A DNA stretch of 64,000 nt from a virus, in the UHGV virus genome UHGV-1366640; one strand, 5' to 3'. This document shows positions 47 to 27,324 of this stretch, in pieces. Position 1 is the stretch's first letter. Each line of letters begins with the position of its first letter. Below the pieces are notes generated by a model. The model saw only the letters and a program-made list of their open reading frames with translations. It was not told the DNA's origin and made no database searches. Position numbers and translations under genes: made by a program.

Positions 47-81
47 TAAGAGTTAAATGAATATTTTGAGCGTTTATATTT
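47..81 (+). promoter_or_regulatory. Bipartite phage promoter, copy 1. Box 1 TAAGAGTT at 47-54, a 16-nt spacer, then box 2 CGTTTATA at 71-78. Lies upstream of the DNA polymerase gene.
   Basis: The same two boxes with an invariant 16-nt spacer recur 12 times in the window. All copies are on the + strand and sit 25-60 nt upstream of an RBS and start codon. Confidence 0.5.
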
Positions 82-115
82 GTGTAAGGAAAATTTATAT
101 TTAAGGAGATTATGT

Positions 116-3100
116 ATGATTTGTAATAATCAGGACTGTTCAAAATTTAAAGAAAATTGTAATATCCTTTCTCCGACTGGAGCAGAATTTCCAGATTTTT
201 ATTTTGTAGGACATGGAATTTCACAGGAAGAGATTAATAGTGGGATATTGTTTAATCCAGAGTCTTCAGATGGAAATGCACTTCTAAAATCTATCTTATC
301 AAGTTACGGAATTTTTGATCGTTCACGATTTGGAAAATTGACAGGCTGTGTTACTGAATATCGTAAATTTACAACAGAAGAACTTGAATTCTGTGCAAAT
401 AGGCTGTTATATGAGGATATTGTTAGATCAAATCCGAAGGTTCTTGTTTTGTTTGGAGCAAAAGTAGCAGAAGTTATTCTTGGAGATAAATTCATTTCAT
501 TATCATCACAGGGTGGAAGACTTCTTTCTTGTAAAATTCTTGGGAAAGAATTCAAGGTGATTTTGACATATTCTCCAGATTATGTTATATCATCAGGTAA
601 TGAAGATTCTGATGAAGAGAATCTCATATATACAAAGTTTGTAAATGATCTTATGTATGCATTGAAAGTTGGAAATGATGAAGTAGCTGATTTATCAAGA
701 AAAGATCTTGTAACAGCTCTGAATTTCGATGAGTTTGATGAGTATTGTAAGAGTCATATTGATAATTCTTCTATTGTTGCATATGATATTGAGACAAATG
801 CACAGCCTGTTCATTCTGCACAATTTAGAATTATTGGTTTTTCACTGAGTTCAAGCGTGAATTCAGGAGTCTATGTTGTTAGAAATTCACTTGAATATGT
901 TATACCGAATGAAGATTGGAAGAAGATTGAAGAACGACTTCTTGGAATATTGAAATCCAAAGAAAAGATTATTGTACATAATTCAATGTACGAAGTTCCA
1001 GCAACTCAAAATGTTTGGAATTATGAAATACAGAATTATGAAGACACTCTTGTTATGTCCAGACTTCTTCTTGGAGGTCGCTCTGGTGCAGGATTGAAAC
1101 TTCAGTGTCAGATTAATCTTGGATATCCTGAATGGGAAGCGGATCTTAATGACTATAAGGACGCTATTGATACATTACGAGTTATTATGAAACCAACACC
1201 TTCCGGGAAATCAAGAGAATGGTTTGATAAATTAGTTGAATTTGGAAATCTTCAAATGCTTGAAGAATATTGTGAAAAAGCAATAGAAGATGAGAAGAAT
1301 AATTTGGATGTCACTAATCTTTTCGAATTTGAGATTAAGGAAAAGTATAAGGATATAGAAAATAACAAACATGGTAAATGCGTGAAGGCAATTGAGTCAA
1401 TTAAGGATATTCTAAGGAAGTATTATGAGGATTCAGAATTTAATAAGATGTTATTCTCAGTCGGACTCGAAGTTATTTCTCTTGTTGAGTCTGGTAATTT
1501 TGGATTTCTTCCTTACAGTTCTATTCCAATGAAACTTCTTTCAAAATATGGTGCTATTGATGCAGTTGGTACATTTGAATTATACGGAGTGTTATCCAAA
1601 AGACTCACAGAAGAATCAACAGTAGATGTTGATCTTTGGAAGGGTTATGAAATAATGAAATCGCAGTTTGATGTTGCGATTTCTATGGAAATGAACGGAC
1701 TTTATTGGAACGATAAGGTTGCCACAGAAGAAAATACTTGGTTTAGAAAAGAAGCAGTTCAGTCAATAAAGAATTTATTTCTCAGTGGATTTCTTGATAA
1801 TAAACTTTTCGATAATGGAAAAGAAGAATGGACACGATATCTTTTAGAAAATAGTCCGGATGATATCATCATGGCACTTGGAGAAAAATTTGTTCCCTCT
1901 AAAAATGGTATTAAAAGAGAATCCGGTGGGAGAGAGATTCGATTTAATAAACTTCCAGAGATTTTCTCTGATTCATATTGGGAAAAACATAGAGATGCTG
2001 TTATATTTAACATGAAGAGAATGATTTTGGCTGACACTAATAAGTTAGATCATCTTAAATGGACTTGTGTTTATAATCCAAATTCTCCGAAACAGGAAGA
2101 TTTTCTGACATCAATTCTTGTGACTCCCGAGATAAAAATTGCAGCGATAATGTATTCCATAAAAATGTTGATGGATGAGCCATCATTTAAGCTTGAAAAT
2201 TATGGATCTGATGATGTTGACTTATTTTCTACGATATTAGATGCAAAGTCAATGAATGCTGCAAGAGCTGAATATAATGAATCAGATGAAGGAAAAGAAA
2301 ATCCTCTTCCTAAAATTACAAATAGAGAGATCTTTGAATCTTTTGCAAAAGTCATATCTGAGCCACGAGGATTTGGTGAAGATGTTAAGGAGATTATAAA
2401 ATTTGGTTCCGGTTATAGATTGACTGATGGTAGAGACGGAAGTATTATTCATCTGTCAGAATTATATAATCTTGCAGGGTATGACCCTGATCTTCCTGAG
2501 GATACATGGTCACCAGAGTTTTTCTTTTTATATAATTACAGAATCTATAAGAAATGTTTCAAAATGATCAGCACTTATATTGTTGGATCGAAAGTTGGTC
2601 GAGGAGCTGTTTGGGAAGTAAGTAGAGAAGATATCGATTCTAATTCAAAACTTCCAAGGAGATTGAATATCTATACAGGTTCTAAATCTGATGATAGAGA
2701 ATATATTATGCAGCCTTCTTATGGAGTTTGCACTGCAGGGAGTTTTAGATGGAAATCCGGACAGCACACAATTCCAGCAACATCTACCGTTAAGAATATT
2801 TACACATCAAGGTATAAGGGTGGTATCATAATGATGCCTGACTTTTCACAGCAGGAGCTTCGAGCAATGGCTGGTCTTTCAAGATGTCAGGCTCTTATAG
2901 ATGCATTTAGAAGTGGAGCGGATATTCATAAGCTGAACGCAAGTAAGATGTTTAATAAACCACTTGATGAAGTCACATCTCTTGAAAGAAGATATGCAAA
3001 ACAGTTTTCATTCTCAATTCTTTATGGAGCTACACCTGAAGGTGCTGGTAAAGATTATTTGAATGGAGATGTCGAAAGAGCAAGGGAAATTTTTGATAGC

Positions 3101-3772
3101 TTCTATGCAGCATATCCTGAAGTTAAGGATTGGATAAAGAAGAAGCACAAAGAAATGTTGTCAACAGGTCGTGTTTCTTGTGAAAATACAGGCATGTTCA
3201 TAAAACTTTCTGTGGATGATGCTCATGGAGATGTAGAAAAAGCAAAGAGGGAAGCACAGAATATGCCTTGTCAGTCATCATCTTCCAATATTGCCGGATA
3301 TATTCTTTCAAAGGTCAATAGATATATCAAAGATCATAATATGTGGACGAAAACAATTTTATTCATACACGATTCACTTGAATTTGATGTTCATCCTTCT
3401 GAATTCTTAAGATTTTCTGAATATCTTGGAAATGCACTTATAACAATCCCAGAAGAAGAGTTTGGTCTTCCTTGTAAGGCAGATCTTGCACTTGGACCTT
3501 CATTGGGTGAAGAACTGGAAGCATCTGATTTGAATCTATCTGAAGATAAGAATTCAGGCGAATTGACAATCGAAGGAGACATTGAATACTTTGATAAGTT
3601 GATACATCAGTTCAGACAGACCTATAAATTGGTAGAATATGAAGATATCGAAAAACCTGAAAATGTATACCTTCCTAAGAAAAGTATCTTTATGCCAAAA
3701 ACAACAGTATCAAAAAGATTTGGTACAACAACACAGAATATCAAACGTAGGGTTAAGTTGATCTATGAATAA
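116..3772 (+). CDS. Family-A DNA polymerase with an N-terminal UDG-like domain and a 3'-5' exonuclease domain.
   Basis: The true start is ATG 116 (MICNN...), 7 nt after the RBS AAGGAGA. The ORF-track start at 80 is an upstream in-frame extension. There is a UDG-family-4-like segment (FYFVGHGISQEE...GILFNPESSDGNALL) and an Exo I motif (YDIETNA). PolA motif A is DFSQQELR, motif B is RRYAKQFSFSILYG and motif C is IHDSLEFD. Confidence 0.85.
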   Translation: MICNNQDCSKFKENCNILSPTGAEFPDFYFVGHGISQEEINSGILFNPESSDGNALLKSILSSYGIFDRSRFGKLTGCVTEYRKFTTEELEFCANRLLYEDIVRSNPKVLVLFGAKVAEVILGDKFISLSSQGGRLLSCKILGKEFKVILTYSPDYVISSGNEDSDEENLIYTKFVNDLMYALKVGNDEVADLSRKDLVTALNFDEFDEYCKSHIDNSSIVAYDIETNAQPVHSAQFRIIGFSLSSSVNSGVYVVRNSLEYVIPNEDWKKIEERLLGILKSKEKIIVHNSMYEVPATQNVWNYEIQNYEDTLVMSRLLLGGRSGAGLKLQCQINLGYPEWEADLNDYKDAIDTLRVIMKPTPSGKSREWFDKLVEFGNLQMLEEYCEKAIEDEKNNLDVTNLFEFEIKEKYKDIENNKHGKCVKAIESIKDILRKYYEDSEFNKMLFSVGLEVISLVESGNFGFLPYSSIPMKLLSKYGAIDAVGTFELYGVLSKRLTEESTVDVDLWKGYEIMKSQFDVAISMEMNGLYWNDKVATEENTWFRKEAVQSIKNLFLSGFLDNKLFDNGKEEWTRYLLENSPDDIIMALGEKFVPSKNGIKRESGGREIRFNKLPEIFSDSYWEKHRDAVIFNMKRMILADTNKLDHLKWTCVYNPNSPKQEDFLTSILVTPEIKIAAIMYSIKMLMDEPSFKLENYGSDDVDLFSTILDAKSMNAARAEYNESDEGKENPLPKITNREIFESFAKVISEPRGFGEDVKEIIKFGSGYRLTDGRDGSIIHLSELYNLAGYDPDLPEDTWSPEFFFLYNYRIYKKCFKMISTYIVGSKVGRGAVWEVSREDIDSNSKLPRRLNIYTGSKSDDREYIMQPSYGVCTAGSFRWKSGQHTIPATSTVKNIYTSRYKGGIIMMPDFSQQELRAMAGLSRCQALIDAFRSGADIHKLNASKMFNKPLDEVTSLERRYAKQFSFSILYGATPEGAGKDYLNGDVERAREIFDSFYAAYPEVKDWIKKKHKEMLSTGRVSCENTGMFIKLSVDDAHGDVEKAKREAQNMPCQSSSSNIAGYILSKVNRYIKDHNMWTKTILFIHDSLEFDVHPSEFLRFSEYLGNALITIPEEEFGLPCKADLALGPSLGEELEASDLNLSEDKNSGELTIEGDIEYFDKLIHQFRQTYKLVEYEDIEKPENVYLPKKSIFMPKTTVSKRFGTTTQNIKRRVKLIYE

Positions 3773-3850: not shown

Positions 3851-3892
3851 ATTACAGACACTCTGAGAACTCTCTAAATTTTCTCTCAAATT

Positions 3893-3927
3893 TGAGAGTC
3901 TTTTGAATAAATTGAGCGTTTACATTT
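3893..3927 (+). promoter_or_regulatory. Bipartite phage promoter, copy 2. TGAGAGTC, a 16-nt spacer, then CGTTTACA.
   Basis: Motif family. The downstream leader and RBS (TTAATTGAAAAGGAGATACACAATTATGGAT) are nearly identical to those of copy 3. Confidence 0.5.
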
Positions 3928-3965
3928 ATGTAAGAAAATTTTAATTGAAAAGGAGATACACAATT

Positions 3966-4757
3966 ATGGATGAATATTTGAAAAAGAAATTCAAACAGCA
4001 GGAGAAAATCAAACAGGAGGATTATCATCTCAGAATTCTTCATGAATTGCATGATACATATTGTAAGAAGAATTCTGATTATGGAAATTCATTCTCAGAG
4101 CTCTATAAACAGTATGGCATCATTTCTCCAATGATAAAACTTGAAGATAAGATGTCAAGACTGAGATCTCTCATCCGTGATGAAAACAAGATACAGGTGA
4201 AAACTGAATCAATAGAAGATACTCTTATGGATCTTGCGAATTATGCAATTATGACAGTACAAGAACTTCGTGGAGATTATCTTGGAGACATTATGTTTGA
4301 TTTCGACTATTCGGTTCTTCCAAAGATTGTAGCTGTTGATTTTGATGGAACTTTGGTAAAAGGAGCAACATTCCCAGATATCGGAGATCTTAATCAGTTG
4401 CTCTATGAAGAGCTTACAAATGGAGAATATAAGGATTATAGGAAAATTCTTCTCACAAATAGGTCGGGTTCAACTCTTGCAGATGCAATTAATTGGTGTG
4501 AAGAACATAATCTTCATTTCGATGCTGTTAATGATAACATTGAAGAGGTGAAGGATGCTCTCTGTGGAGGTCCTATCATGAAGCCATGGTTTACAGTTTT
4601 GATTGATGACAAAGCAATGTCAATTGATGAATTCGAGGAAAAATATACTGGCAAGAAGATGTATAATGATATTGAGGATATAAGTTCTACAGAATCTAAG
4701 ATAGACTGGCATAATGGTGCTCCAATTCCTTGTAATAGAAATGAAGAAATCTCTTAA
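3966..4757 (+). CDS. HAD-superfamily hydrolase, a putative nucleotidase or phosphatase, with an N-terminal domain of unknown function.
   Basis: The real start is ATG 3966 (MDEYLKK), 8 nt after GGAGA. HAD motif I is VAVDFDGTLV and a C-terminal motif IV is LIDDKA. The ORF-track N-terminus MKRRYTIM is read-through of the conserved leader. Confidence 0.5.
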   Translation: MDEYLKKKFKQQEKIKQEDYHLRILHELHDTYCKKNSDYGNSFSELYKQYGIISPMIKLEDKMSRLRSLIRDENKIQVKTESIEDTLMDLANYAIMTVQELRGDYLGDIMFDFDYSVLPKIVAVDFDGTLVKGATFPDIGDLNQLLYEELTNGEYKDYRKILLTNRSGSTLADAINWCEEHNLHFDAVNDNIEEVKDALCGGPIMKPWFTVLIDDKAMSIDEFEEKYTGKKMYNDIEDISSTESKIDWHNGAPIPCNRNEEIS

Positions 4758-4760
4758 ATT

Positions 4761-4795
4761 TGAGAGTTTTTCTTCATCTAACAGCGTTTACACTT
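4761..4795 (+). promoter_or_regulatory. Bipartite phage promoter, copy 3. TGAGAGTT, a 16-nt spacer, then CGTTTACA.
   Basis: Motif family, with a leader nearly identical to that of copy 2. Confidence 0.5.
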
Positions 4796-4832
4796 ATGTA
4801 AGAAAATTTAATTGAAAAGGAGATACACAATT

Positions 4833-5702
4833 ATGGATTTTCAAATCATAAAAACCGCTCCAACCTTCAAAACAGATTGGGCGGTCGGCTGGTACAAGAA
4901 TGCCAATGATGCTTGGCAGAATCTGTATTATGGTCTTAATGTAGATGGAGATATTAGATCTCCGAGAGGATTGAAGGTCAAAGAAACTCTTGGATGTGAC
5001 ATCTACATAATGAATCCTATGGATAATTTGGTGTACAACAGTTTCTATCCAGCATCACCTTATTATATAGCTCAAGAATATGAGTGGTATCATTCATATA
5101 ATAATGATGTTGAGTCAATCGCAAAATTTGCTCCATTTTGGAGAAAAATTGCTAATCCTGATGGAACTGTTAATAGCAATTATGGTTGCTATATATTCAA
5201 ACTCTATGAAGATGGTACGAGTGAATGGACACGATTGGTTGATTTATTAAGAAAGGATCCTGATAGTCGACAAGCAATCCTCCAGATTCCTATTACACCA
5301 TTTAAGAATACAAAAGATCTAACTTGTACATCAAGCTTACAATTTTTTGTGAGAGATAATAAAGTGTTTATGACAACATACATGAGATCAAATGATCTTT
5401 GTAAGGGTTTTAGAAATGATATTCCATTTTTCACATCATTGCAGATTGATCTTGCAAAAGAACTTGATCTTGAAGTTGGTTGGTACCGTCATGTTGTGGG
5501 TAATCTTCATATCTATGAACCTGATTTTATTGAAAATAGAATAGGTGAATTTAGATTTGAATGTATATCAGAATATAAATATCCTGACTCTGTGAGAGAA
5601 TATGACATTAAGCATGATTTTAATATTCTTAGAAAAAGAAGTGTTGATGGAGTTCAGAATTCAATTTTGAAATATATGGCAGAAAATTTTAATAGAAAGT
5701 GA
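4833..5702 (+). CDS. Thymidylate-synthase-family enzyme, a putative deoxypyrimidine (dCMP-type) hydroxymethylase.
   Basis: The real start is ATG 4833 (MDFQII). It has a ThyA-like core: LRKDPDSRQAIL (compare ThyA LKNDPDSRRII), a Cys in LTCTSSLQFFV (ThyA APCHAFFQFYV), and YMRSND (ThyA YQRSCD). In GFRNDIPFF, aligned to ThyA GLPFNIASY, my alignment places an Asp at the ThyA Asn177 position, the dCMP-hydroxymethylase-type substitution. That alignment is uncertain by one residue. Confidence 0.55.
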   Translation: MDFQIIKTAPTFKTDWAVGWYKNANDAWQNLYYGLNVDGDIRSPRGLKVKETLGCDIYIMNPMDNLVYNSFYPASPYYIAQEYEWYHSYNNDVESIAKFAPFWRKIANPDGTVNSNYGCYIFKLYEDGTSEWTRLVDLLRKDPDSRQAILQIPITPFKNTKDLTCTSSLQFFVRDNKVFMTTYMRSNDLCKGFRNDIPFFTSLQIDLAKELDLEVGWYRHVVGNLHIYEPDFIENRIGEFRFECISEYKYPDSVREYDIKHDFNILRKRSVDGVQNSILKYMAENFNRK

Positions 5703-5717
5703 GGAAGGTTTTACACA

Positions 5718-7253
5718 ATGAAAGCTATAAGATCGCAATTACACATGACAGCGTTGTATGCTCTGAAAAACACATCTTGTAATAAGCTTGCAGTCGGTGC
5801 ATCATTTGTACCAAATGGACATTTTCCGACTGTTTATGCATGTAATCGTAACGATGATTATTCTTGTAAAGAGAATGATAATTGTTATAAGGCAAGTGTC
5901 ACTGGAATTTATGAGTCATCTGAGGAAACAAGGAAATATTGTAAATCGATTCATGCAGAAATCAATCTTATCAACAAATTAAAAGAGATGTATCCTCATA
6001 AGGAAAGAAATCTTCTTTCTGATGGAACAGTATATGTTACAAGATATCCTTGTCTTGAATGTGCAAGAAATCTTATTCTGTATGGTGCTAAGAAGGTTGT
6101 CTATTGTGGAAAACAGGAAATCTCAGAAGAAGTAAAATCACTTTTTTCTCTTGTTAAAGACCTTGAAGTCGTTTGGGATCCTGAACTTGATTATGAATTC
6201 ACAAATGAAGATGAATATCCATGGTGGACAGACAAGTTTTACAACGAAGCATATGAAATCGTAAAAGATCGTCAAGCTCCATTTACAATAATTTCATATA
6301 ATAATCCTACATTGACAACATTGAAGCAGCTTTCCTTTGATAAGATGACAAAAGAGAATGGATGGAAGGGCATTGTATTTGTCAGAGAATCTCAGAGAGA
6401 GATGTATGAAGAAGCAACAATACAATATCCGACAGTTGAAGTTGTGTCATTTCCTGATGAACTGATTTCAAACGCAGGAGCAACACGAAGAGCAACACAA
6501 AAATGGATGTATATTCATGGGTATAATATTGCATTTCAGGCGGATGACGATGTAGGCAATATGGGATATCTTGTAAAGGGAAAAACAGCAGATGGCAGAG
6601 AGAAATCTGATTATGTTTCCGGGATTAATGGGAATATCGGAAGAGTCCTTGCAATGTGGCAGATTGCTATGGAAAAGACAATATCGGTTAATCCTAAAGT
6701 TGTTCAGTCTTGTGCGTCTGTTCAAGGTCTTGCCTTTGGTCTTAAAGAATGTCAAAAGGACATGTCATTGATATTTGGTACAGGATCTCAGGTTCAGGTT
6801 ATTTGCATGAATGTGAAGACACTCGTAGAAAATGATCTTTTTTATGCAGATAATAAAGATTGTGGACTCGATGACCTTGATATGACAGCAAGATGTATAA
6901 AATCAGGATTTCAGATAGCAAGATTTTCTTGGTTAATTTATCATTGTCGTCCAATGGGTGTAAATAGCCAATATGTTTGGTCAGAAGAACTTCATAGAGT
7001 AATCCCAGGAGAGCAGTTGAGAGCAAGATTCCAAGACTCTCAGACAAAACTCAAAGCACGGCATGGAGATGTTCCTTGGATTGCTTTTGAAGAAAAGAGA
7101 GGACTTCCTCAAACATCTTTTAGACCAATGAGAATTCGTAAGTGGCAGAAAGAGCAAGGATTCTATGGAGATTATGATAACTACAAATTTGATATATGGA
7201 AAGACGGTGAATTACTGAATGAAGCAAAAACTGGATATTCAAAAGAAATATGA
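5718..7253 (+). CDS. dCMP/cytidine deaminase domain fused to a roughly 360-aa C-terminal domain of unknown function.
   Basis: The N-terminal zinc-deaminase signature is HAEINLI ... PCLECARNL. The C-terminal two-thirds, including QADDDVGN, carries no motif I recognise. The start follows an RBS, GAGGAAGG. Confidence 0.6.
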   Translation: MKAIRSQLHMTALYALKNTSCNKLAVGASFVPNGHFPTVYACNRNDDYSCKENDNCYKASVTGIYESSEETRKYCKSIHAEINLINKLKEMYPHKERNLLSDGTVYVTRYPCLECARNLILYGAKKVVYCGKQEISEEVKSLFSLVKDLEVVWDPELDYEFTNEDEYPWWTDKFYNEAYEIVKDRQAPFTIISYNNPTLTTLKQLSFDKMTKENGWKGIVFVRESQREMYEEATIQYPTVEVVSFPDELISNAGATRRATQKWMYIHGYNIAFQADDDVGNMGYLVKGKTADGREKSDYVSGINGNIGRVLAMWQIAMEKTISVNPKVVQSCASVQGLAFGLKECQKDMSLIFGTGSQVQVICMNVKTLVENDLFYADNKDCGLDDLDMTARCIKSGFQIARFSWLIYHCRPMGVNSQYVWSEELHRVIPGEQLRARFQDSQTKLKARHGDVPWIAFEEKRGLPQTSFRPMRIRKWQKEQGFYGDYDNYKFDIWKDGELLNEAKTGYSKEI

Positions 7254-8433
7254 TTACATTATTGTGGGAGCAGGTCTTGCTGGTGCGACTTGTGCAAGGC
7301 TCCTCGCAGATGAGGGAAAGACAATTTTGATCATTGATTCAAGAGATCATACTGGTGGAAATTGTTATTCTGAACGAATGGATGGGATTGAGGTTCATCG
7401 TTATGGACCTCACATCTTCCACACAGACTCTGAGAAGATTTGGAACTTTGTAAATCGATATACAGTGTTTAATGACTACATAAATTCTCCAATCGCAGAA
7501 TACAATGGGCGATATTACAATTTACCAATCAATATGAACACATTGATACAGATTTATCCTAATGTAGTACCATCTCCAGATGCTATGACAGCAGAAATTT
7601 TGAAAGATATTCCTGAAGAGTATTTGGAATTCAGGAACGGACACAAGAAAGCAACCAATTTAGAAGAACATATAATTTCACAAGTTGGTACGAAGATCTA
7701 TAACACATTTATCAAAGATTATACAGAAAAACAATGGGGAAAAAGCTGCTCAGAATTATCTCCAGAGATCATAAAGAGAATTCCTATTAGAATGACTTTT
7801 GATAACAATTATTTTTCAGATAGATTTCAGGGGATTCCAAAATATGGATATCAAGATCTTTTTAATAAAATGTTGATAGATAATAACATAGATATTATTC
7901 TTGAATACAATGTTCAAGAAGAGGATCTTTCATATTTATTAGAACGGACGAGACAGTTTATCATATATACAGGAGATCTTAATGAAATTGTCCCTGAAAA
8001 TCTTCAAAGAATTCCTTACAGAAGTCTTAGATTTGATTTCCAGACTTATGATGCTTCTACAGATAAGTCGTTACCAAAAACAGCTGTCATTAATCATACT
8101 GGAAGCAATTCAAGGTACACGAGATCTGTTGATTACAAATATTTTGACAAAAACTGTCATCAAAGAAATTCAGTAATTGTACATGAAAAATCTGTTGAGT
8201 GGTACAAAGGATGGTTAATTCCATATTATCCAATTTTATCAGAAGATGCTCATTCTAAATATATGGATGCAAGAGATTATTTAAGATCTAAGTATTCACG
8301 ATTAAGATTCTGTGGAAGAATTGCAACTTATCGATATCTTGATATGGATGATACAATTGATAATGCATTCACTTGCGTCAATAACCTGAAATATGATTAT
8401 GTGAGGTGTGAAGAGTCCAGTGAAACGATTTAA
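7219..8433 (+). CDS. glf: UDP-galactopyranose mutase (Glf-like).
   Basis: The whole N-terminal half matches the UGM pattern: YDYIIVGAGLAGATCA, LIIDSRDHTGGNCYSE, VHRYGPHIFHT, YNGRYYNLPINMNTL and EKQWG. The start overlaps the previous gene by 35 nt and has GGTGA 8 nt upstream. Confidence 0.8.
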   Translation: MKQKLDIQKKYDYIIVGAGLAGATCARLLADEGKTILIIDSRDHTGGNCYSERMDGIEVHRYGPHIFHTDSEKIWNFVNRYTVFNDYINSPIAEYNGRYYNLPINMNTLIQIYPNVVPSPDAMTAEILKDIPEEYLEFRNGHKKATNLEEHIISQVGTKIYNTFIKDYTEKQWGKSCSELSPEIIKRIPIRMTFDNNYFSDRFQGIPKYGYQDLFNKMLIDNNIDIILEYNVQEEDLSYLLERTRQFIIYTGDLNEIVPENLQRIPYRSLRFDFQTYDASTDKSLPKTAVINHTGSNSRYTRSVDYKYFDKNCHQRNSVIVHEKSVEWYKGWLIPYYPILSEDAHSKYMDARDYLRSKYSRLRFCGRIATYRYLDMDDTIDNAFTCVNNLKYDYVRCEESSETI

Positions 8434-9550
8434 TCTATTGTATGTTTCAATTTCGTCTTTTTGGAAAACAGCATGTATCAAACCTTATTTGCATCATGAT
8501 GTTATTTTCAAATATCTCAATAGGATGATGCCTATTGATATTCACATTGCTCTTCCAATGCCTGGAACAAATTATCTTTGTCAATACCTTGAAACAGGTC
8601 GAGATTCCAGGATAATGAAGAGTTGGAAATCATTGCCATTCCATGTATATCCAGATTTGTATACAGGAGAAGTTGATGGAATGGTTATAAATGGGAGTGG
8701 TACATCAAATGAGCATGTTTGTGCAGATGGTACTGTTTTGTCGAAAGATATTATCGCAGATTATATTGTGAATCGAGCACTTTACTGCATGATGAATAAT
8801 CTTCCGATAATCTTATTTGATCCTGATAATTTTGTTTGTTCGCTTGATGGAGATAGCTCCAAACATCGTTGGATCAAAGATAAAACAAATTACACAGCTC
8901 GTGTTTATGAGCTTTGTAAAGACTATGAAAAGTTCACACTTGCAAGTCCAATGGAGTCTGGTACAGATGTACATCATCCAAGTGAGATCTTTGTTCCATA
9001 TACATTGGATAAGGAAATCAATGTGCCGATAAAACCTCTTTCAGAGAGACAGTATTTTACAAAATATGTTGGAAGCAATTATTACAGAGATCATTTTGTA
9101 CAATACTTCAATGAATGTTCAAAGATTGGGAAAACCCTTGTTGCAGGAGCAGGATGGACTCAATATTATGAATCTTATCCAGATATTGAGTGGAAACATA
9201 AATTCCCTCTTACAGCAGAAAATATTTATGATTTCTATAGTGATTCACAGATTGGTCTTTATGGATCTCCTCCTGCACTTGCTGATCGTGGACATTATAC
9301 ATTAAGAGTAAGAGACTTCTATGACAGTGGTGTGTTTGTTGTTCCAGAAGCAAAAGAGCATTATATAGAATCTATTTGTATCTCAGAGTATTTTTATACA
9401 ATTGAACATCTTCTCAATGGAATAAAATTTGGAGAAGGTCTGTCCGATGATGATTATGAAAATATTGTTAGAAAACAGAGAGAAGTCCTGATTAAGAAAT
9501 TTGATGGAGAACAGTATGCAGAGATCTTTGCAGAAAAATTATCAAAATAA
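8408..9550 (+). CDS. Hypothetical protein whose start is uncertain (GTG 8408 or an internal ATG near 8528). A possible partner enzyme of the sugar pathway.
   Basis: Long open frame. Its position between the UGM and the GT-like genes is the only functional hint. I recognise no motif in it. Confidence 0.35.
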   Translation: MKSPVKRFNLLYVSISSFWKTACIKPYLHHDVIFKYLNRMMPIDIHIALPMPGTNYLCQYLETGRDSRIMKSWKSLPFHVYPDLYTGEVDGMVINGSGTSNEHVCADGTVLSKDIIADYIVNRALYCMMNNLPIILFDPDNFVCSLDGDSSKHRWIKDKTNYTARVYELCKDYEKFTLASPMESGTDVHHPSEIFVPYTLDKEINVPIKPLSERQYFTKYVGSNYYRDHFVQYFNECSKIGKTLVAGAGWTQYYESYPDIEWKHKFPLTAENIYDFYSDSQIGLYGSPPALADRGHYTLRVRDFYDSGVFVVPEAKEHYIESICISEYFYTIEHLLNGIKFGEGLSDDDYENIVRKQREVLIKKFDGEQYAEIFAEKLSK

Positions 9551-9566
9551 CGAAAGGAAATTGTTC

Positions 9567-10880
9567 ATGAATAACAGATATTCTAAATTGACATTTATTC
9601 GACAGTGTAATCCAATATATGAAGATTACTGTAAGAAATACTCAACTGTCAGATTCTATTCAGAGACAATTGTCTCTCTTGCAAAAAATCTTGAGATTCC
9701 AGAGATAGAGATTCTCTATTTTAATGAGACCTATCCGAGCGATACTCATAGCGGAAAGGAAACTGAAGCAAGAATTTGGTTTGAAAATCTGAAGAAGTCT
9801 GATGATTCTGTGAATGAAATAGATTATCCAACATTTTCAATGTATAAGTCTGCCAAAAGAAATGATATCAAATTAGATGTTAAAAACATTTCTTGCCATA
9901 CAGAGACAAATTTTGAAAATTCACTTGTTGTAATCTCATTTATGACAGATACACCAGCGATTCATAAAAAGTATTTTAACAAAACAATCATACCAATTGT
10001 AAATCAGTCAGCAGGATTTATTTATCTTGCATCTGACAATGAATATTCAGGTTATGCATATAGAAAAGATGAAATAGTGATAAATTGTTTGGAATTTATT
10101 GGTGATTATCTTCCTGAAGATTTCATAAGACAGATGAAATGCATTATCATGACAGAGTCTAACTGCCTTGGTCTTAGAAATTCCTTAATTCAAAAATTTC
10201 ATTGTCCTGTTTTCTACTGTCCGATGATAATAGATCCACAAAATCTAAGATTTAATACAAAAACATACAAACAATTCACTGAAGAGACCGAGAATAAGAT
10301 AGCAATGCTCAAAAATTTGAATACATTTATGATCTATCAAGATTTCTTTGAAACAATAAGAGATCATGGAGTTGTATTTGAATCAAGCATGCCAAATACT
10401 CGAAAGAAATATGCACCTTTCTGTGAAAAGTATGGTCTGCAGTACAAGAACGCAAGATTTTGGAAAATGGAAGAGTTTGAGCATAAAATCTCTCCATATA
10501 GAGTTTTCTTAGGGATGTCAACGATTGGCAGCAGCCGATTTACTTCAAAAATCTTAGAAGGAACAAATGCTGGATGTATTGTAATCAATCCCTACATAGA
10601 TCTCGAAGGCATTGGATTCTCTGCAGAGGAATATCCGATCTGTAATTCCACATTGCAAGATTCAGGGATCCTTGATGTTCTTACGATAGACAGATGGACT
10701 CAAGAAGAATGCTCGAAGTCTCTTGCTGATGCTGCAAATTCATTTCTTAATTATGATTATGATGAATATACGAATAGACTGCTTCATCAAGTAACATTCA
10801 TCAAAAAGTATTTTCTGGAGGATAGTCCATGTGTTCAAGAATGCTTACAAAAGATCATCCCTTTTCTTAAGGAAAATTAA
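9567..10880 (+). CDS. Hypothetical protein, possibly a GT-B-like glycosyltransferase.
   Basis: Start ATG 9567 (MNNRYSK) after GAAAGGAAA. The C-terminal segment VFLGMSTIGSSRFTSKILEGTNAGCIVIN resembles the GT-B C-terminal nucleotide-sugar-binding region. The evidence is weak. Confidence 0.3.
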   Translation: MNNRYSKLTFIRQCNPIYEDYCKKYSTVRFYSETIVSLAKNLEIPEIEILYFNETYPSDTHSGKETEARIWFENLKKSDDSVNEIDYPTFSMYKSAKRNDIKLDVKNISCHTETNFENSLVVISFMTDTPAIHKKYFNKTIIPIVNQSAGFIYLASDNEYSGYAYRKDEIVINCLEFIGDYLPEDFIRQMKCIIMTESNCLGLRNSLIQKFHCPVFYCPMIIDPQNLRFNTKTYKQFTEETENKIAMLKNLNTFMIYQDFFETIRDHGVVFESSMPNTRKKYAPFCEKYGLQYKNARFWKMEEFEHKISPYRVFLGMSTIGSSRFTSKILEGTNAGCIVINPYIDLEGIGFSAEEYPICNSTLQDSGILDVLTIDRWTQEECSKSLADAANSFLNYDYDEYTNRLLHQVTFIKKYFLEDSPCVQECLQKIIPFLKEN

Positions 10881-10910
10881 TTTGAATATTCTAATAAAAG
10901 GATAATTCCA

Positions 10911-10945
10911 AAGGAGTTATCCTTTTCTTTTTAGCGTTTATACTA
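10911..10945 (+). promoter_or_regulatory. Bipartite phage promoter, copy 4. AAGGAGTT, a 16-nt spacer, then CGTTTATA.
   Basis: Motif family. The downstream sequence TACTATTGTAAATACTATTTTTGAAAGGA is shared with copy 5. Confidence 0.45.
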
Positions 10946-11038
10946 TTGTAAATACTATTTTTGAAAGGAAACAGTCATTAACAACGACAAATAAAAATAG
11001 CCGAAAGGTATAAAGAAGTAAAGAAAGAGGTAATAAAA

Positions 11039-11170
11039 ATGAAAGATTATGCGCTTATTATAAAGACACCAGGAGGAAGTGTAAGTGATATATTGTATTT
11101 TGATACACACGAAGAAGCATACGAGGAAATGCAATTTTGCAAAAACATTCTACAGCGACAGGAACTTTGA
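11039..11170 (+). CDS. Small hypothetical protein of 43 aa.
   Basis: ATG 11039 follows AGAGG, immediately downstream of promoter copy 4. It is below the ORF-track cutoff. Its position and RBS are the only support. Confidence 0.25.
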   Translation: MKDYALIIKTPGGSVSDILYFDTHEEAYEEMQFCKNILQRQEL

Positions 11171-11203
11171 ATATGAATTGAAAAAGGAGTGTTAACAATC
11201 AAT

Positions 11204-11662
11204 ATGATTATTAGAAGACTGTATGAAATGTCAAGATCTCTTAAGGAGATCAAATTGGAATTATATAATCACTCTGAACAGATCAGAGAGAATCTAATGA
11301 AAATTTTCCTACTAAGAGATTGTTCAGCAAAACATCATTGGATTTCAGAACTCTTTGGAAATTGTCATGATGTTAAGAAATGTAATGGATCAAACAAATA
11401 TCCAAAAGAGTCTGTAATCTTACAGGAAATTTGGAAATCTTGGGAAGATAGTTATTCAGATAAACTTGAAAAATATATTGTTAATCTTCAAAATTCTGAG
11501 AAAGATGTTAAATTCCCAGATGAGTTCTCTTCAAAGAATCTCTATGATTTTATGAAAGATTATTGTAAATGGTTGTCCAAAATTCTATCAAAAGATGGTG
11601 TTGTTACATTTCCAGAAGTTGAGCGAGAAGTCAACCAACTTCTGCAGAAATATGAAATATGA
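11204..11662 (+). CDS. Hypothetical protein.
   Basis: Start ATG 11204 (MIIRRLYE), 9 nt after AAGGAG. Confidence 0.5.
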   Translation: MIIRRLYEMSRSLKEIKLELYNHSEQIRENLMKIFLLRDCSAKHHWISELFGNCHDVKKCNGSNKYPKESVILQEIWKSWEDSYSDKLEKYIVNLQNSEKDVKFPDEFSSKNLYDFMKDYCKWLSKILSKDGVVTFPEVEREVNQLLQKYEI

Positions 11663-11687
11663 ATTGTTAAGGGTAATTCTCTTCAAA

Positions 11688-11722
11688 AGAGAGTTATCCT
11701 TTTCTTTTTAGCGTTTATACTA
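11688..11722 (+). promoter_or_regulatory. Bipartite phage promoter, copy 5. AGAGAGTT, a 16-nt spacer, then CGTTTATA.
   Basis: Motif family. Confidence 0.5.
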
Positions 11723-11756
11723 TTGTAAATACTATTTTTGAAAGGAGATCATTAAG

Positions 11757-12800
11757 ATGTATAATTATTATGCAAATTATCTTAACAACGATCCTAATGT
11801 AATTAAATTCATTGATTGGGTTTCTACAAATTCTGTTGTAATTAATTCATGTAAGAATACTCAAGAGCTCAAAGAAGTCTTAGACAGGAGATCTTCAATA
11901 TTGAATATCCATACTGTAAATCTACTTTCTGGGAATGTAAATATTTCTGCTACTATTGAATTCAATAATGAAAGTCATACAGTATTGAAACTCTCAAAAT
12001 ACAATTCAGAAGATTCATTGTATAGAACATTTGATTCTGATGATCCTTTTCTCAGAAATCGATTGATTAAGAATTCACTGTATTCAGAAGATTTTGGTAT
12101 ATTGTATCATGGAGATCCCGAAATCGTGATTTCAATGTACGAACCAGGATTGAGTGTTCAAAAGGTTCTCAGTGTTTCTTCTGTAGAGAAAATTGAGGAG
12201 ATAAATGATAAATCAATATCTGCAATTTCAAAGTTTCATAAACTTCCAGTAAGAACACATTGTACAGATCTTATACAGCTCTTATGTATGTTCAAATCTG
12301 CACTATATCGAAGACCTGTCTATCAAAAAGAAGAAGATTTGATAAAGTTCATTAATTCTAAAATTTCAGAAATTGTAAAATTTGAATCTAAATTTGAAGA
12401 TAAAGATTTTGTATATTCACATTTGAACGCAAATCCTACAAAAATGATTTTTGGGAATGATCAAAAAGTAAGATTAATTGATTTTGAATTTGCTGGTGTT
12501 GGATTAAAATATTATGACTATGCAAATTATTATAATTTTCTAAATGAATGGCATCTTAAAGAATTTGATCTTGATGTTTTGTGGGAAATGAATCATCAAT
12601 TCATTAATTGTTGTGAATCTGAAATTGAAAATTTCGATTATAAAGATTTCAACAAATGTACTGATTACATGAAATTCGTTTGGGGAACATGGTATCTTCT
12701 TAGCGGAATTTGTAATGAAGATGAGACCTCCTTGAAATTTGGACTTGATTGGATGAATTATCCGTGTGAAAATGTAAATGATTACATCTATTGGAAATAG
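11757..12800 (+). CDS. Phosphotransferase with an APH/choline-kinase (protein-kinase-like) fold.
   Basis: Brenner/APH motif KVRLIDFEFAGVGLKYYDYANYY. Start ATG 11757 after AAAGGAGA. Confidence 0.45.
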   Translation: MYNYYANYLNNDPNVIKFIDWVSTNSVVINSCKNTQELKEVLDRRSSILNIHTVNLLSGNVNISATIEFNNESHTVLKLSKYNSEDSLYRTFDSDDPFLRNRLIKNSLYSEDFGILYHGDPEIVISMYEPGLSVQKVLSVSSVEKIEEINDKSISAISKFHKLPVRTHCTDLIQLLCMFKSALYRRPVYQKEEDLIKFINSKISEIVKFESKFEDKDFVYSHLNANPTKMIFGNDQKVRLIDFEFAGVGLKYYDYANYYNFLNEWHLKEFDLDVLWEMNHQFINCCESEIENFDYKDFNKCTDYMKFVWGTWYLLSGICNEDETSLKFGLDWMNYPCENVNDYIYWK

Positions 12801-22685: not shown

Positions 22686-23585
22686 ATGAGAGATCAAACT
22701 TTAGGAGATGAAATTCTCAATGAGATTGATCATCTTACACCCGAAGAATTAAAATATTTGAAATCAGCGATTTCAGATGAAGACAAAATGAATAATCTAT
22801 GGTATTCAGATTACGAAGAAATTCCGGTTGACATAGAAACCTTTATGACAGAACCAGAATATCTTGGAAAATCTCTAATCAATGATGAAGGAAAAAATCT
22901 TATCTATCCATTTTGGCATAAGGAACTTCAAAAAGTATGGGCGCCAAACTCTGGAATTTGGGAGCTTGCACTCTCAGGATCAATTGGATCAGGTAAGTCT
23001 ACGCAAGCTGTTATCTGTATGGCTTATATATTATACAGGCTTCTATGCCTACGAGATCCTACGAAATACTATAATTTAACAAAAGGATCCAAGATAGCAA
23101 TTGCTTTCTTCAATCTAAATTTAGATCAAGCTTATGGTGTTGGTTGGACAAAACTTCAAGGATATCTTAAAAATTCTCCATGGTTTTTAAGGCATGGATC
23201 TCTTGTCGGAAGAGGAGATAATCTAACATATTATCCTGGAAAAGATATTAATATTGTAGTTGGCTCTCAACTCTCACATTTCATCGGACTGGATATTTTC
23301 TGTTTGACAGGAGACACAGTCATAGAAACAGAAAACGGCTGTGCTACAATTGAATCCTTGCAAGATCATTCAGTAAGAGTTTTGAACTCAAATGGAGAAT
23401 TGTCAAATCAGCCAGTTTATTCTTGTCTTATGGGATTTACAAAAGATCTTATAGAAATTCAATTAGAAGATGATACAATTATAAGATGTACGCCAAATCA
23501 CAAATTTCTGTTAAAAGACGGATCTTGGAAGCAGGCAATGGATTTTACAGAAGATGATGAATTAATGGAGATCTCTAAAATTTAA
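22686..23585 (+). CDS. terL: Terminase large subunit N-terminal fragment (N-extein, 205 aa, with Walker A) fused to the N-half of a split intein (IntN, 94 aa).
   Basis: Walker A is LSGSIGSGKST. At codon 206 the sequence switches to intein block A, CLTGDTVIETENG, and later block B, RCTPNHKFLL. The ORF stops about 27 aa after block B. Confidence 0.7.
   Translation: MRDQTLGDEILNEIDHLTPEELKYLKSAISDEDKMNNLWYSDYEEIPVDIETFMTEPEYLGKSLINDEGKNLIYPFWHKELQKVWAPNSGIWELALSGSIGSGKSTQAVICMAYILYRLLCLRDPTKYYNLTKGSKIAIAFFNLNLDQAYGVGWTKLQGYLKNSPWFLRHGSLVGRGDNLTYYPGKDINIVVGSQLSHFIGLDIFCLTGDTVIETENGCATIESLQDHSVRVLNSNGELSNQPVYSCLMGFTKDLIEIQLEDDTIIRCTPNHKFLLKDGSWKQAMDFTEDDELMEISKI
23301..23582 (+). mobile_element. 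Split intein, N-terminal half (IntN, 94 aa), inside the terminase N-fragment.
   Basis: Hint-domain blocks A (CLTGDTVIET) and B (TPNH). Confidence 0.65.
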
Positions 23586-26853: not shown

Positions 26854-27324
26854 ATGAATTTTAATATGAAAAAGAAAATAATAACAATTATAACACTGAT
26901 TTTACTGATTACATCTATCACAACAAGTGTATTCGCAGAAACAAACGAAGAATGTTTAGCCAAACTCCTTTGGGGTGAAGCAAGAGGAATCCCCTCAATG
27001 ACTGAAAAAGCTGCTGTTGTTTGGGTTGTTATGAATCGAGTTGATGATCCAAGATTCCCCGGAAATATTCAGGCAGTCGTAAAAGCACCGAATCAATTCG
27101 TTGGCTACAATTATTACAATCCTGTTGATCCTACTCTTGCAATGATAGCAAGAGATGTAATGTGGAGATGGACTATTGAAAAACAGGGAAGAACAGATTC
27201 AGGGAGAGTTATACCAAGAAATTTCTATTACTTCACAGGAAGTGGTGGTAAAAACTGGTTCAGACAAGAATATTGGTCATCTTGGTATTGGAACTGGACT
27301 CTCAAAACACCTTATGCAAGTTAG
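26854..27324 (+). CDS. Secreted cell-wall hydrolase of the SleB family.
   Basis: Signal peptide MNFNMKKKIITIITLILLITSITTSVFA. SleB/Hydrolase_2 core WGEARGIPSMTEKAAVVWVVMNRVDDPRFPGNIQAVVKAPNQFVG. Confidence 0.65.
   Translation: MNFNMKKKIITIITLILLITSITTSVFAETNEECLAKLLWGEARGIPSMTEKAAVVWVVMNRVDDPRFPGNIQAVVKAPNQFVGYNYYNPVDPTLAMIARDVMWRWTIEKQGRTDSGRVIPRNFYYFTGSGGKNWFRQEYWSSWYWNWTLKTPYAS

Follow-up and report, generated by a model that had tools for sequence, protein, structure and literature searches.

The question raised by this locus is why a phage would carry a UDP-galactopyranose mutase (UGM) downstream of its DNA polymerase gene and among genes of nucleotide metabolism. The locus lies in a stretch of 64,000 nucleotides of the virus genome UHGV-1366640, that of an uncultured phage; this stretch was analysed as a whole and is referred to here as the window. 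An earlier note had listed the genes following the polymerase as a candidate DNA hypermodification island. All the listed genes were found on the + strand at or close to their proposed positions, with gene-level matches far beyond chance, and a 152-aa ORF at 11204-11662, which the note did not mention, was added. The features of the region are as follows.

80-3772, + strand: family A DNA polymerase (PolA) with an N-terminal UDG-like domain, context as a marker of the replication module (Pfam)
3883-3898, + strand: terminator-like hairpin 3' of the polymerase gene
3916-3933, + strand: phage promoter-like motif GCGTTTAYAYTWTKGTAA, upstream of the DUF1599-HAD gene
3966-4757, + strand: DUF1599 fused to a HAD phosphatase (Pfam, PHROG, PDB, NCBIfam)
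4784-4801, + strand: promoter-like motif heading the five-gene operon
4833-5702, + strand: ThyA-superfamily enzyme, predicted dCMP 5-hydroxymethylase (PDB matches, active-site signature)
5718-6194, + strand: zinc deaminase domain of the dCMP deaminase type, N-terminal part of a fusion (Pfam)
6195-7253, + strand: TAGT (TET-associated glycosyltransferase) domain, C-terminal part of the fusion (Pfam, homologs)
7219-8433, + strand: UDP-galactopyranose mutase, Glf (Pfam, NCBIfam, PDB, residues)
8420-9550, + strand: predicted GT-B glycosyltransferase (ORF 8408/8420-9550), new sequence family with 11 clusters known
9567-10880, + strand: second predicted GT-B glycosyltransferase, new sequence family with 15 clusters known
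10896-10926, + strand: terminator-like hairpin closing the operon, 14-bp stem followed by a T run
10934-10951, + strand: promoter-like motif
11204-11662, + strand: 152-aa protein with no function assigned, candidate member of the system only
11669-11701, + strand: terminator-like hairpin
11711-11728, + strand: promoter-like motif 5' of the kinase-like gene
11757-12800, + strand: choline-kinase/APH-like protein with a degenerate catalytic loop (Pfam, below cut-off)
28724-29182, + strand: dUTPase-family protein, possible pool-clearing enzyme of the pathway (Pfam, NCBIfam, synteny in the related locus L010)

In tblastn the polymerase (Pfam DNA_pol_A 3e-44, UDG 3.9e-5) shared 32% identity with its counterparts in SPO1-like phages and Bacillus phage SP-15. 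The motif GCGTTTAYAYTWTKGTAA occurs eight times in the window against 0.04 expected, always on the + strand, intergenic and upstream of genes, and it is common to the operon, the DNA polymerase gene and the ligase gene. The genes for the ThyA homolog, the deaminase::TAGT fusion, UGM and the two GT-B proteins constitute one unit with spacings of 15, -35, -14 and 16 nt, a promoter-like motif at the 5' side and a terminator-like hairpin at the 3' side, and UGM is located inside this unit. The first three of these genes occur in the same order in relatives that are only 39-55% identical (L005 and L009). The 152-aa protein showed no family matches and no homolog in the related loci.

The ThyA-family enzyme, earlier taken as a hydroxymethylase candidate, gave MilA CMP hydroxymethylase (2e-25) and T4 dCMP hydroxymethylase (2e-18) as top PDB matches. 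At E. coli positions 143/146/169/177 it has D/C/D/D, identical to T4 gp42, with Cys146 and D169 kept and the changes L143D and N177D; the diagnostic worth of these positions has been described (PMC13326640). Because of this T4 gp42 active-site signature the enzyme looks like a dCMP hydroxymethylase, and the candidacy holds for the cytosine type specifically, as a predicted dCMP 5-hydroxymethylase. Two other roles were considered for this enzyme and rejected: that of a 5-hydroxycytosine (5hoC) synthase is ruled out by D169, which is N169 in the 5hoC synthase RB69 gp48, and that of a dUMP enzyme by D177, which is N177 in the SP10 dUMP hydroxymethylase.

The protein encoded upstream of the operon had been described as a HAD nucleotidase-like protein. 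The HAD phosphatase was confirmed in its C-terminal part (DxDGT motif; PDB 2obb, 1.6e-8), whereas the single-domain view did not stand, as the N-terminus contains DUF1599, the nucleotide modification associated domain 1 (Pfam 7e-10). The protein also matched phrog_1238, the family of RB69 gp51 (8e-16), and NCBIfam BT0820 HAD (2e-15, under cut-off), and its gene adjoins the ThyA homolog in L009, L010 and L013 also. It is probably a pool enzyme for nucleotide or sugar phosphates. The dUTPase-family protein (Pfam dUTPase 3.9e-9; NCBIfam dut 1e-14, under cut-off) has a homolog in L010 that is flanked immediately by the ThyA homolog and the deaminase, and we tentatively suggest that it clears the pool for this pathway. 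Pfam searches of the ORFs up to ~31 kb and of ten larger downstream ORFs found neither a dNMP kinase for 5hmdCMP nor a clear dCTPase; ~34 kb of the contig continues beyond the 64-kb window.

The proposed dCMP-deaminase fusion at 5718-7253 was borne out. Its deaminase domain (Pfam dCMP_cyt_deam_1 1.4e-11) has intact HAE (residue 79) and PCxxC (residue 111) motifs, and its C-terminal domain, which had been marked for a glycosyltransferase search, falls in the TAGT family, whose members are annotated as DNA-base glycosyltransferases. The window domain itself scored just under the Pfam TAGT cut-off (3.2e-5, 24.4 bits against 27.5), and of the 52 homologs retrieved by an exhaustive HMMER search 49 matched the family (best 1.5e-15). 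The DxD motif is invariant among homologs, with DDD at residues 276-278, and so is D386. In L010 the deaminase and TAGT are two adjacent, unfused genes. The domain is thus predicted from sequence to be a DNA-base glycosyltransferase. In T6-like phages, a TAGT homolog has been assigned, on the basis of synteny, the addition of the second glucose to glucosyl-5hmC DNA (PMC13390438).

The fusion also brings in the possibility that the island is the same and the base is 5-hydroxymethyluracil (5hmU). The deaminase would then convert 5hmdCMP into 5hmdUMP, and 5hmU would replace T and be glycosylated, giving a Galf-bearing phage analogue of base J. The deaminase is joined to a DNA glycosyltransferase and always lies beside the ThyA homolog. 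The HAD phosphatase and the dUTPase-family enzyme would suit the dTMP/dTTP exclusion known of SPO1-type hmU phages, and the phages with the closest polymerases, SPO1-like and SP-15, modify thymine. Furthermore, in L009 and L010 a stand-alone protein with HMUDK_hel, a domain named after 5-hydroxymethyluracil DNA kinase, adjoins the same cytosine-type ThyA homolog; the matches are strong (3e-45 and 1e-52) and the genes lie between DUF1599-HAD and the D177 homolog, a hint that 5hmdCMP may be passed on to 5hmdUMP by the deaminase. However, the HMUDK_hel gene is absent from the window, and T4 is a cytosine modifier although it too has a dCMP deaminase. SP10, the hmU phage used for comparison, has the N177-type enzyme whereas the clade members are all D177, and the literature links found for TAGT enzymes are to 5hmC-derived DNA and not to 5hmU. 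Taken together, we regard a 5hmU base as unlikely.

The identification of UGM at 7219-8433 was upheld. The protein matched Pfam GLF (2.5e-50) and passed the NCBIfam TIGR00031 equivalog cut-off (309.8 bits against 303.75), and E. coli UGM 1i8t was its best PDB match (1e-82). Every substrate-binding residue checked was conserved, namely Y155, W160, R174, Y185, N270, R280, Y314, R343, Y349 and D351 of the K. pneumoniae enzyme. Because L010, in which TAGT and the second GT-B are present, shows no UGM within 10 kb, the mutase is not obligatory for the core system.

The mutase homolog might instead feed another furanose donor, such as UDP-arabinofuranose or UDP-GalfNAc, in which case the furanose of the DNA glycan would not be Galf. 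The second-best PDB match was the Campylobacter jejuni enzyme 4mo2 (2.5e-79), which we take to be a bifunctional UDP-Gal/UDP-GalNAc mutase; RB69 and DLP3 have arabinofuranose on their DNA, and the HAD domain shares its PHROG with the sugar-phosphate phosphatase RB69 gp51. Against this, it is the E. coli UGM that matched best and the UDP-galactopyranose mutase equivalog cut-off that was passed, and the window UGM has His and Lys, like the E. coli enzyme, where C. jejuni UGM has Arg59 and Arg168, presumably its specificity determinants. Neither an arabinose-5-phosphate isomerase nor a nucleotidyltransferase was detected and the kinase is degenerate, and a donor other than UDP-Galf is judged improbable.

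The proteins at 8408/8420-9550 and 9567-10880, which had been flagged as possible glycosyltransferases, matched no sequence families. Confident AlphaFold models (pTM 0.85 and 0.89, respectively) predicted a GT-B fold for both, and in structure the first matched T4 DNA alpha-glucosyltransferase best. The APH-fold kinase of the earlier reading fared differently. It scored below the Pfam Choline_kinase cut-off (1.1e-5, 25.3 bits against 29), and its Brenner motif HxDxxxxN reads HLNANPTK in the window and its two closest relatives, whereas seven others have HLDTDPVN. Because the catalytic Asp and Asn are gone, the protein is probably no enzyme here. The window lacks the partner genes of the kinase-like gene (one for a BCCT transporter, and two more), and the protein is probably a pseudokinase, a dead remnant of an accessory module that sister phages have kept intact.

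That accessory module bears on the alternative, raised earlier, that the mutase serves surface glycans. The glycans served by the mutase and the GT-B enzymes would then be those of the host or the virion (cell-wall polysaccharide, teichoic acid or glycosylated capsid protein), with only the ThyA homolog and the deaminase being nucleotide-related. The sister phages' BCCT transporter and choline-kinase-like gene recall phosphocholine on teichoic acids, UGM normally works in cell-envelope glycan synthesis and GT4-type GT-B enzymes mostly use lipids and polysaccharides. Other phage UGMs have been so annotated (PMC6630229), and glf lies at the very end of the record in several Streptococcus suis prophage records. 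However, UGM here sits between glycosyltransferase genes in one promoter-to-terminator unit that opens with a hydroxymethylase, its TAGT neighbour is fused to a nucleotide deaminase, and the promoter-like motif is shared with replication genes; the ThyA homolog and TAGT have no known role in glycan synthesis. Nothing in the scanned proteins pointed to a membrane segment, a lipid-carrier enzyme, a flippase or a polymerase, and the same trio stands beside a T4-type beta-glucosyltransferase in phage ATCCB. The surface-glycan alternative is therefore disfavoured, and we consider it very improbable.

The gene calls, the glycosyltransferase folds and the operon structure therefore give good support to a DNA glycosylation or hypermodification island. 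Galactofuranose on 5hmC DNA is the best, albeit unproven, reading, and we hold it moderately probable that cytosine is hypermodified in two stages, as in T4, with a furanose donor that the phage supplies itself. The operon probably makes hydroxymethyl-cytosine and then adds sugars in DNA, one of them likely a five-membered-ring galactose; as read from sequence, the ring form of the sugar, its place in the glycan, the sugar order and the acceptor base (5hmC or 5hmU) are tentative. In the first stage, in the nucleotide pool, the active-site signature suggests that the ThyA homolog would convert dCMP into 5-hydroxymethyl-dCMP, which, once phosphorylated, would be used by the phage polymerase instead of dC. 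The pyrimidine pool would be shaped by DUF1599-HAD, the dUTPase-family protein and the deaminase domain, the last supplying dUMP for thymidylate synthesis like T4 Cd. In the second stage, on DNA, folds and families suggest that three glycosyltransferases, the TAGT domain fused to the deaminase and the two GT-B enzymes, would attach a glycan of one to three sugars to the hydroxymethyl group. UGM, encoded between them, would convert host UDP-galactopyranose into UDP-galactofuranose, and therefore at least one sugar of the glycan would be Galf. By analogy with T4, RB69 and DLP3, the glycan would shield the phage DNA from restriction and CRISPR nucleases, and sugar diversity would help to evade defences tuned to glucosyl-5hmC.

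While the hypermodification proposed earlier is supported, its novelty as a pathway is more limited, since UGM-fed cytosine glycosylation has already been proposed for Rhizobium phage RL38J1, where a phage UGM would supply the UDP-Galf for a glycan that begins with galactose and is carried by 5-hydroxycytosine (Lee et al., NAR 2026; PMC13326640; bioRxiv 10.1101/2025.06.16.659550). A galactofuranosyltransferase-like enzyme acting on enterococcal phage DNA had also been speculated upon (Duerkop et al. 2016; PMC4999554). Like the window, RL38J1 and the Pootjesviridae have a ThyA homolog together with three predicted DNA glycosyltransferases and a UGM of their own (35% identical), and their cytosine glycan starts with galactose (PMC13326640). 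RL38J1 differs in D169N and an ether-linked sugar on 5-hydroxycytosine, whereas the window keeps D169 and predicts 5hmC; its UGM (gene 084) is far from its ThyA homolog (gene 216) rather than in one operon, and it has no deaminase::TAGT fusion.

Lactobacillus phage ATCCB (Tybeckvirinae), for which no published chemistry was found, is an independent recurrence of the combination: it has in a row a D/C/D/D ThyA homolog, a DNA glycosyltransferase and a UGM, with 38-39% identity to the window proteins and a DUF1599 homolog nearby. It has a single T4-type beta-glucosyltransferase (Pfam T4-Gluco-transf 9e-22) where the window has TAGT and two GT-B enzymes, and it lacks the deaminase fusion. RB69, DLP3 and HY126 (Afh pathway) have a furanose on cytosine, as predicted for the window, and share with it a phage-own donor supply encoded next to a ThyA homolog and to several GT-B transferases, as well as an APH-fold kinase-like protein and a HAD phosphatase of phrog_1238. 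The window differs from them in having a mutase and not a de novo pentose pathway, with neither the isomerase nor the nucleotidyltransferase found, in its degenerate kinase motif and in D169 against N169.

With T4 and T6, the window shares the gp42 signature, a phage-encoded dCMP deaminase, a predicted post-replicative glycosylation by GT-B (the first being structurally closest to T4 alpha-GT) and TAGT enzymes, and the location of these genes among those for replication and early functions. T4 draws on host UDP-glucose and has no sugar-nucleotide enzyme, whereas the window has UGM in its operon and joins deaminase and TAGT in one polypeptide; its two GT-B proteins have no detectable sequence similarity to the T4 enzymes, and the phage itself, which has a family A polymerase, is distantly related. 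The operon would represent a new version of a known anti-restriction strategy.

The window lies within a 98-kb metagenomic contig (ENA ERZ27229772 k119_285387), and a near-identical 98-kb contig was found in a second sample. The phage is of the myovirus type, and its structural genes encode a T4-like portal, a prohead protease, a gp23-type capsid protein and a tail sheath. Its polymerase (gene 80-3772) is of family A and shares ~32% identity with the enzymes of Bacillus phage SP-15 and SPO1-like phages; at its N-terminus, residues 38-174 form a domain resembling uracil-DNA glycosylase (Pfam UDG 3.9e-5, slightly under the cut-off). The G+C content is 30-39%, every gene between 80 and ~34,000 is on the + strand, and megablast against 50,697 phage records returned no nucleotide-level relative of the 9-kb region. 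A sigma-70 region-2 protein (27337-28086) and a SleB-type cell-wall hydrolase (26854-27324) in the window, together with an SLH-domain protein of the related locus L010 (L010:19038-19982), hint at a Firmicutes host (Clostridia or Negativicutes), and for this uncultured lineage the sample labels and low G+C suggest human-associated Firmicutes as hosts. In addition, members of the clade seem to differ in intein content: a 299-aa ORF of the window (22686-23585) has a weak intein-splicing match (7e-5), and its neighbourhood counterpart in L010 (L010:15223-17556) encodes an MJ0330_N protein of 777 aa that carries an intein signal.

All the genes that the earlier note had placed downstream of the polymerase gene were found there, and the features of the region are as follows.

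3966-4757, + strand: DUF1599-HAD protein, its N-terminal half being DUF1599, "nucleotide modification associated domain 1" (7e-10)
4833-5702, + strand: ThyA homolog; among proteins of solved structure, closest to MilA CMP hydroxymethylase and T4 dCMP hydroxymethylase
5718-7253, + strand: deaminase::TAGT fusion; N-terminal zinc deaminase with intact HAE and PCxxC motifs
7219-8433, + strand: UDP-galactopyranose mutase (UGM, Glf; Pfam PF03275, NCBIfam TIGR00031); Pfam GLF 2.5e-50, 171.5 bits against a cut-off of 26.3
8420-9550, + strand: first GT-B protein
9567-10880, + strand: second GT-B protein
11757-12800, + strand: kinase-like protein, choline-kinase/APH-like below threshold only (Pfam 25.3 bits against 29)
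70, 3916, 4784, 10934, 11711, 16437, 26266 and 28152, + strand: copies of GCGTTTAYAYTWTKGTAA, from a motif search of the window

The window has 8 copies of the 18-nt motif GCGTTTAYAYTWTKGTAA, where chance predicts 0.04; all are on the + strand, closely upstream of replication or modification genes, and the motif probably serves as an early or middle promoter specific to the phage. The copy at 70 precedes the polymerase gene, and those at 3916, 4784, 11711 and 16437 precede the genes for DUF1599-HAD, the ThyA homolog, the kinase-like protein and a ligase, respectively. DUF1599-HAD and ThyA have almost the same 46 nt before their start codons, ribosome-binding site included. The copy at 4784 is followed by ThyA, deaminase::TAGT, UGM and the two GT-B genes at spacings of 15, -35, -14 and 16 nt, and this five-gene unit closes at a 14-bp terminator-like hairpin (10896-10926). 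Because of the motif, the tight spacings and the hairpin, the mutase appears to be co-transcribed with the hydroxymethylase and three glycosyltransferases. The ThyA signature, TAGT family, GT-B folds and UGM being together in one operon, the DNA glycosylation island proposed in the earlier note is well supported.

The window ThyA homolog and its clade relatives were aligned with E. coli ThyA, T4 gp42, RB69 gp48 and the SP10 dUMP hydroxymethylase. The positions corresponding to 143/146/169/177 of E. coli ThyA read D/C/D/D in the window protein and in every clade relative, identical to T4 gp42, with Cys146 as the catalytic residue. It has been reported that N177D confers cytosine specificity, L143D/E admits water and gives a hydroxymethyl rather than a methyl product, and D169N marks the hydroxylases (Lee et al. 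2026, PMC13326640). Given these published roles, the D/C/D/D signature predicts 5-hydroxymethyl-dCMP as the product. The 5-hydroxycytosine route of the RB69 and RL38J1 type was rejected because D169 is kept in the window protein and its clade relatives, the 5-hydroxycytosine synthase RB69 gp48 having N169. The Asn of a dUMP hydroxymethylase of the SPO1/SP10 type was likewise not found, D177 of the window standing against N177 of SP10.

The C-terminal half of the DUF1599-HAD protein is a HAD phosphatase (motif VAVDFDGTLV) that matches PDB 2obb (1.6e-8) and phrog_1238 (8e-16), a family including RB69 gp51, which corresponds to the sugar-bisphosphate phosphatase AfhF. A MazG-like dCTPase identity of DUF1599 gained no support, as the best PDB match of a 4-sequence profile was AF_0060 at a non-significant E of 0.24. 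A hypothetical protein of Lactobacillus phage ATCCB (ATCCB_0052, L001:13306-13662) is 46% identical to the window DUF1599 domain and sits 2 kb downstream of a trio of ThyA, beta-glucosyltransferase and UGM genes, so this domain accompanies such clusters in an unrelated phage too.

The C-terminal half of the fusion protein (~350 residues, TAGT domain 6195-7253), in which the earlier note proposed to look for a glycosyltransferase fold, turned out to be TAGT, a predicted DNA-base glycosyltransferase: its own score against Pfam TAGT (PF20691; 24.4 bits, E 3.2e-5) is below the gathering cut-off of 27.5, but 49 of the 52 homologs aligned match the family, the best at 1.5e-15. These 52 were taken from 78 representative homologs recovered by an exhaustive HMMER search with the window domain (E down to 1e-92). 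The DDD motif, D276 and D277 included, is invariant in the homologs, as is D386; five homologs also carry a deaminase and one an amino-acid:DNA transferase domain, and L010 encodes its deaminase and its TAGT in two adjoining genes. A PDB phmmer search with the C-terminal domain gave only noise, and the 52-sequence profile found no solved structure in the PDB. No TET/5mYOX dioxygenase or cytosine methyltransferase domain was present among the window ORFs scanned; by analogy with T6-like phages, the 5hmC for TAGT would come via ThyA.

For the two downstream proteins the expectation of glycosyltransferases stood as to fold and not as to family. Confident AlphaFold models predicted in both a two-Rossmann GT-B fold like that of the T4 DNA glucosyltransferases (alpha-GT, beta-GT), and searches of Pfam, PHROG and NCBIfam, as well as tblastn against the 50,697 phage records, gave no match; PDB phmmer searches returned only noise. 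The two sequence families comprise 11 and 15 known clusters and are previously unseen.

The mutase passed the TIGR00031 equivalog threshold narrowly (309.8 bits against 303.75) and aligned with the E. coli UGM at 1e-82. The FAD-binding GxGxxG is present, the N-terminus reading IVGAGLAG, and in a HMMER alignment to 2bi7 all of K. pneumoniae Y155, W160, R174, Y185, N270, R280, Y314, R343, Y349 and D351 (numbering counted by hand) are kept; we take these, from the UGM structural literature, to be the substrate-binding residues. Arg59 and Arg168 of the C. jejuni enzyme are presumably specificity residues, for which a literature check found no supporting paper. It seems distinctly improbable that the homolog supplies a furanose donor other than UDP-Galf. 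The mutase and GT-B proteins might instead remodel host glycans, which is very improbable; the promoter-like motif of the mutase unit is the same as that of the replication genes. Both alternatives are less likely. A UGM homolog of 30% identity was also found in Aeromonas phage Aes012 (NC_020879; L015:7013-10287), directly after motA in the early region and followed by two unannotated ~350-aa proteins with no Pfam match; in T4-like Aeromonas phages these three may form another UGM-plus-transferase set.

With domain identities, active-site signatures, operon layout and conserved synteny established from sequence or structure, the pathway would run as follows. dCMP would be converted to 5hmdCMP and incorporated in place of dC, and the hydroxymethyl group would then be glycosylated on DNA by TAGT and the two GT-B enzymes. 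From host UDP-Galp, UGM would make UDP-Galf, and at least one of the sugars attached would then be galactofuranose; the deaminase would supply dUMP as T4 Cd does. Galf on 5hmC is a plausible but hypothetical reading.

Homologous loci of relatives were compared with the window as follows.

L013, identity 73-97% to window proteins: layout as in the window
L005, identity 32-56%: ThyA, deaminase::TAGT and UGM in order, both GT-B genes and an additional GT4-like gene
L009, identity 38-58%: ThyA, deaminase::TAGT and UGM in order; of the GT-B genes, only the second
L010, identity 43-59%: ThyA, a dUTPase-family gene, deaminase, TAGT and the second GT-B; UGM absent within 10 kb

From this gene content, the clade core is hydroxymethylase, deaminase, TAGT and one GT-B, and UGM and the other glycosyltransferases are variable. 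A stand-alone HMUDK_hel protein is encoded in L009 (L009:1259-2269, 3e-45) and L010 (L010:5991-6968, 1e-52), with no P-loop seen by eye, between DUF1599-HAD and the cytosine-type (D177) ThyA homolog, an unexpected pairing with a dCMP-type hydroxymethylase. This helical domain is named for the 5-hmdU DNA kinase, a hallmark of thymidine hypermodification, and the deaminase might for this reason route 5hmdCMP to 5hmdUMP, making hmU the modified base. The window has no HMUDK_hel homolog by tblastn, and we regard hmU as unlikely.

The APH-fold kinase of the earlier note is probably not an active enzyme. In place of the Brenner motif HxDxxxxN, the window protein and its two closest relatives have HLNANPTK, and seven more distant homologs have HLDTDPVN; the catalytic Asp and metal-binding Asn are thus lost and the downstream DFE motif is kept, so the protein is probably dead. 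A role as AfhE-like sugar kinase was rejected and the protein excluded from the mechanism because BLASTP showed no similarity to RB69 gp52 and the catalytic motif is broken. In sister phages with the intact HLDTDPVN gene, three further genes adjoin it (L005:11295-15918, L009:11306-15828, L011:3249-7791): a transporter of the BCCT family (Pfam PF02028), a protein of 283-287 aa whose N-terminal GAGxGSR looks, by eye only, like that of a nucleotidyltransferase, and an alkaline-phosphatase-like protein of 383-426 aa with TGDHGF and a weak Pfam Metalloenzyme match (0.004). Pfam and PDB profile searches with the latter two were non-significant, their assignments being based on the short motifs only. 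The set resembles a Lic-type choline uptake and activation module adjoining DNA glycosyltransferases. The broken-motif kinase alone remains of it in the window and L013, and L010 and L014 have no kinase. To judge from the gain, decay and loss of this module in sister phages, diversification of the glycan seems to be ongoing. A far-reaching scheme, to which we give little credence, is that the fused deaminase turns 5hmdCMP from the cytosine-type hydroxymethylase into 5hmdUMP, that hmU replaces thymine and bears a galactofuranose glycan, a bacterial-virus counterpart of base J with a furanose, and that in sister phages the intact choline-kinase-like enzyme, BCCT transporter and two partner proteins cap this glycan with a choline-derived phospho-group, giving a teichoic-acid-like zwitterionic DNA decoration.

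Outside the clade, phage ATCCB has an adjoining ThyA homolog (D/C/D/D), T4-type beta-glucosyltransferase (Pfam 9e-22) and UGM, and in Pootjesviridae UGM is found alongside a 5hoC synthase and three glycosyltransferases. Counting the window locus, UGM has entered gene sets for pyrimidine glycosylation on at least three occasions, which makes it a useful marker for such systems in metagenomes.

A sugar coat protects phage DNA from restriction enzymes and CRISPR nucleases and in turn makes it a target of type IV systems that recognise particular sugars; Galf is, to our knowledge, absent from mammals. If Galf on 5hmC is true, it would be the first 5hmC glycan with a hexofuranose, and the locus would be a source of three candidate DNA glycosyltransferases, two GT-B proteins from small families and one natural deaminase-glycosyltransferase fusion. 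The novelty claimed earlier for a galactofuranosyl DNA modification was overstated, as the idea is not new: the UGM of phage RL38J1 was proposed to supply the UDP-Galf for a 5hoC glycan that begins with galactose (PMC13326640), and a galactofuranosyltransferase-like enzyme was speculated to modify enterococcal phage DNA (Duerkop et al. 2016, PMC4999554). The texts consulted do not say that the RL38J1 galactose had its ring form determined, and they gave no chemical proof of Galf in phage DNA. The locus is new in that one operon joins UGM to a synthase of the 5hmC type, in its fusion of deaminase and TAGT, in the two GT-B families and in the lineage.

Among the known systems, the Afh pathway of RB69, DLP3 and HY126 relies on an arabinose-5-phosphate isomerase, on AfhE as kinase-uridylyltransferase and on AfhF as HAD phosphatase, of which only the HAD has a window counterpart; pairwise BLASTP of this HAD with RB69 gp51 gave 2e-4 over 19 residues, and no isomerase or nucleotidyltransferase was found. 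The window system would work like the glucosyl-5hmC pathway of T4 and T6 and, as in the arabinofuranosyl-5hoC clusters of RB69 and DLP3, add a phage-encoded sugar-donor step.
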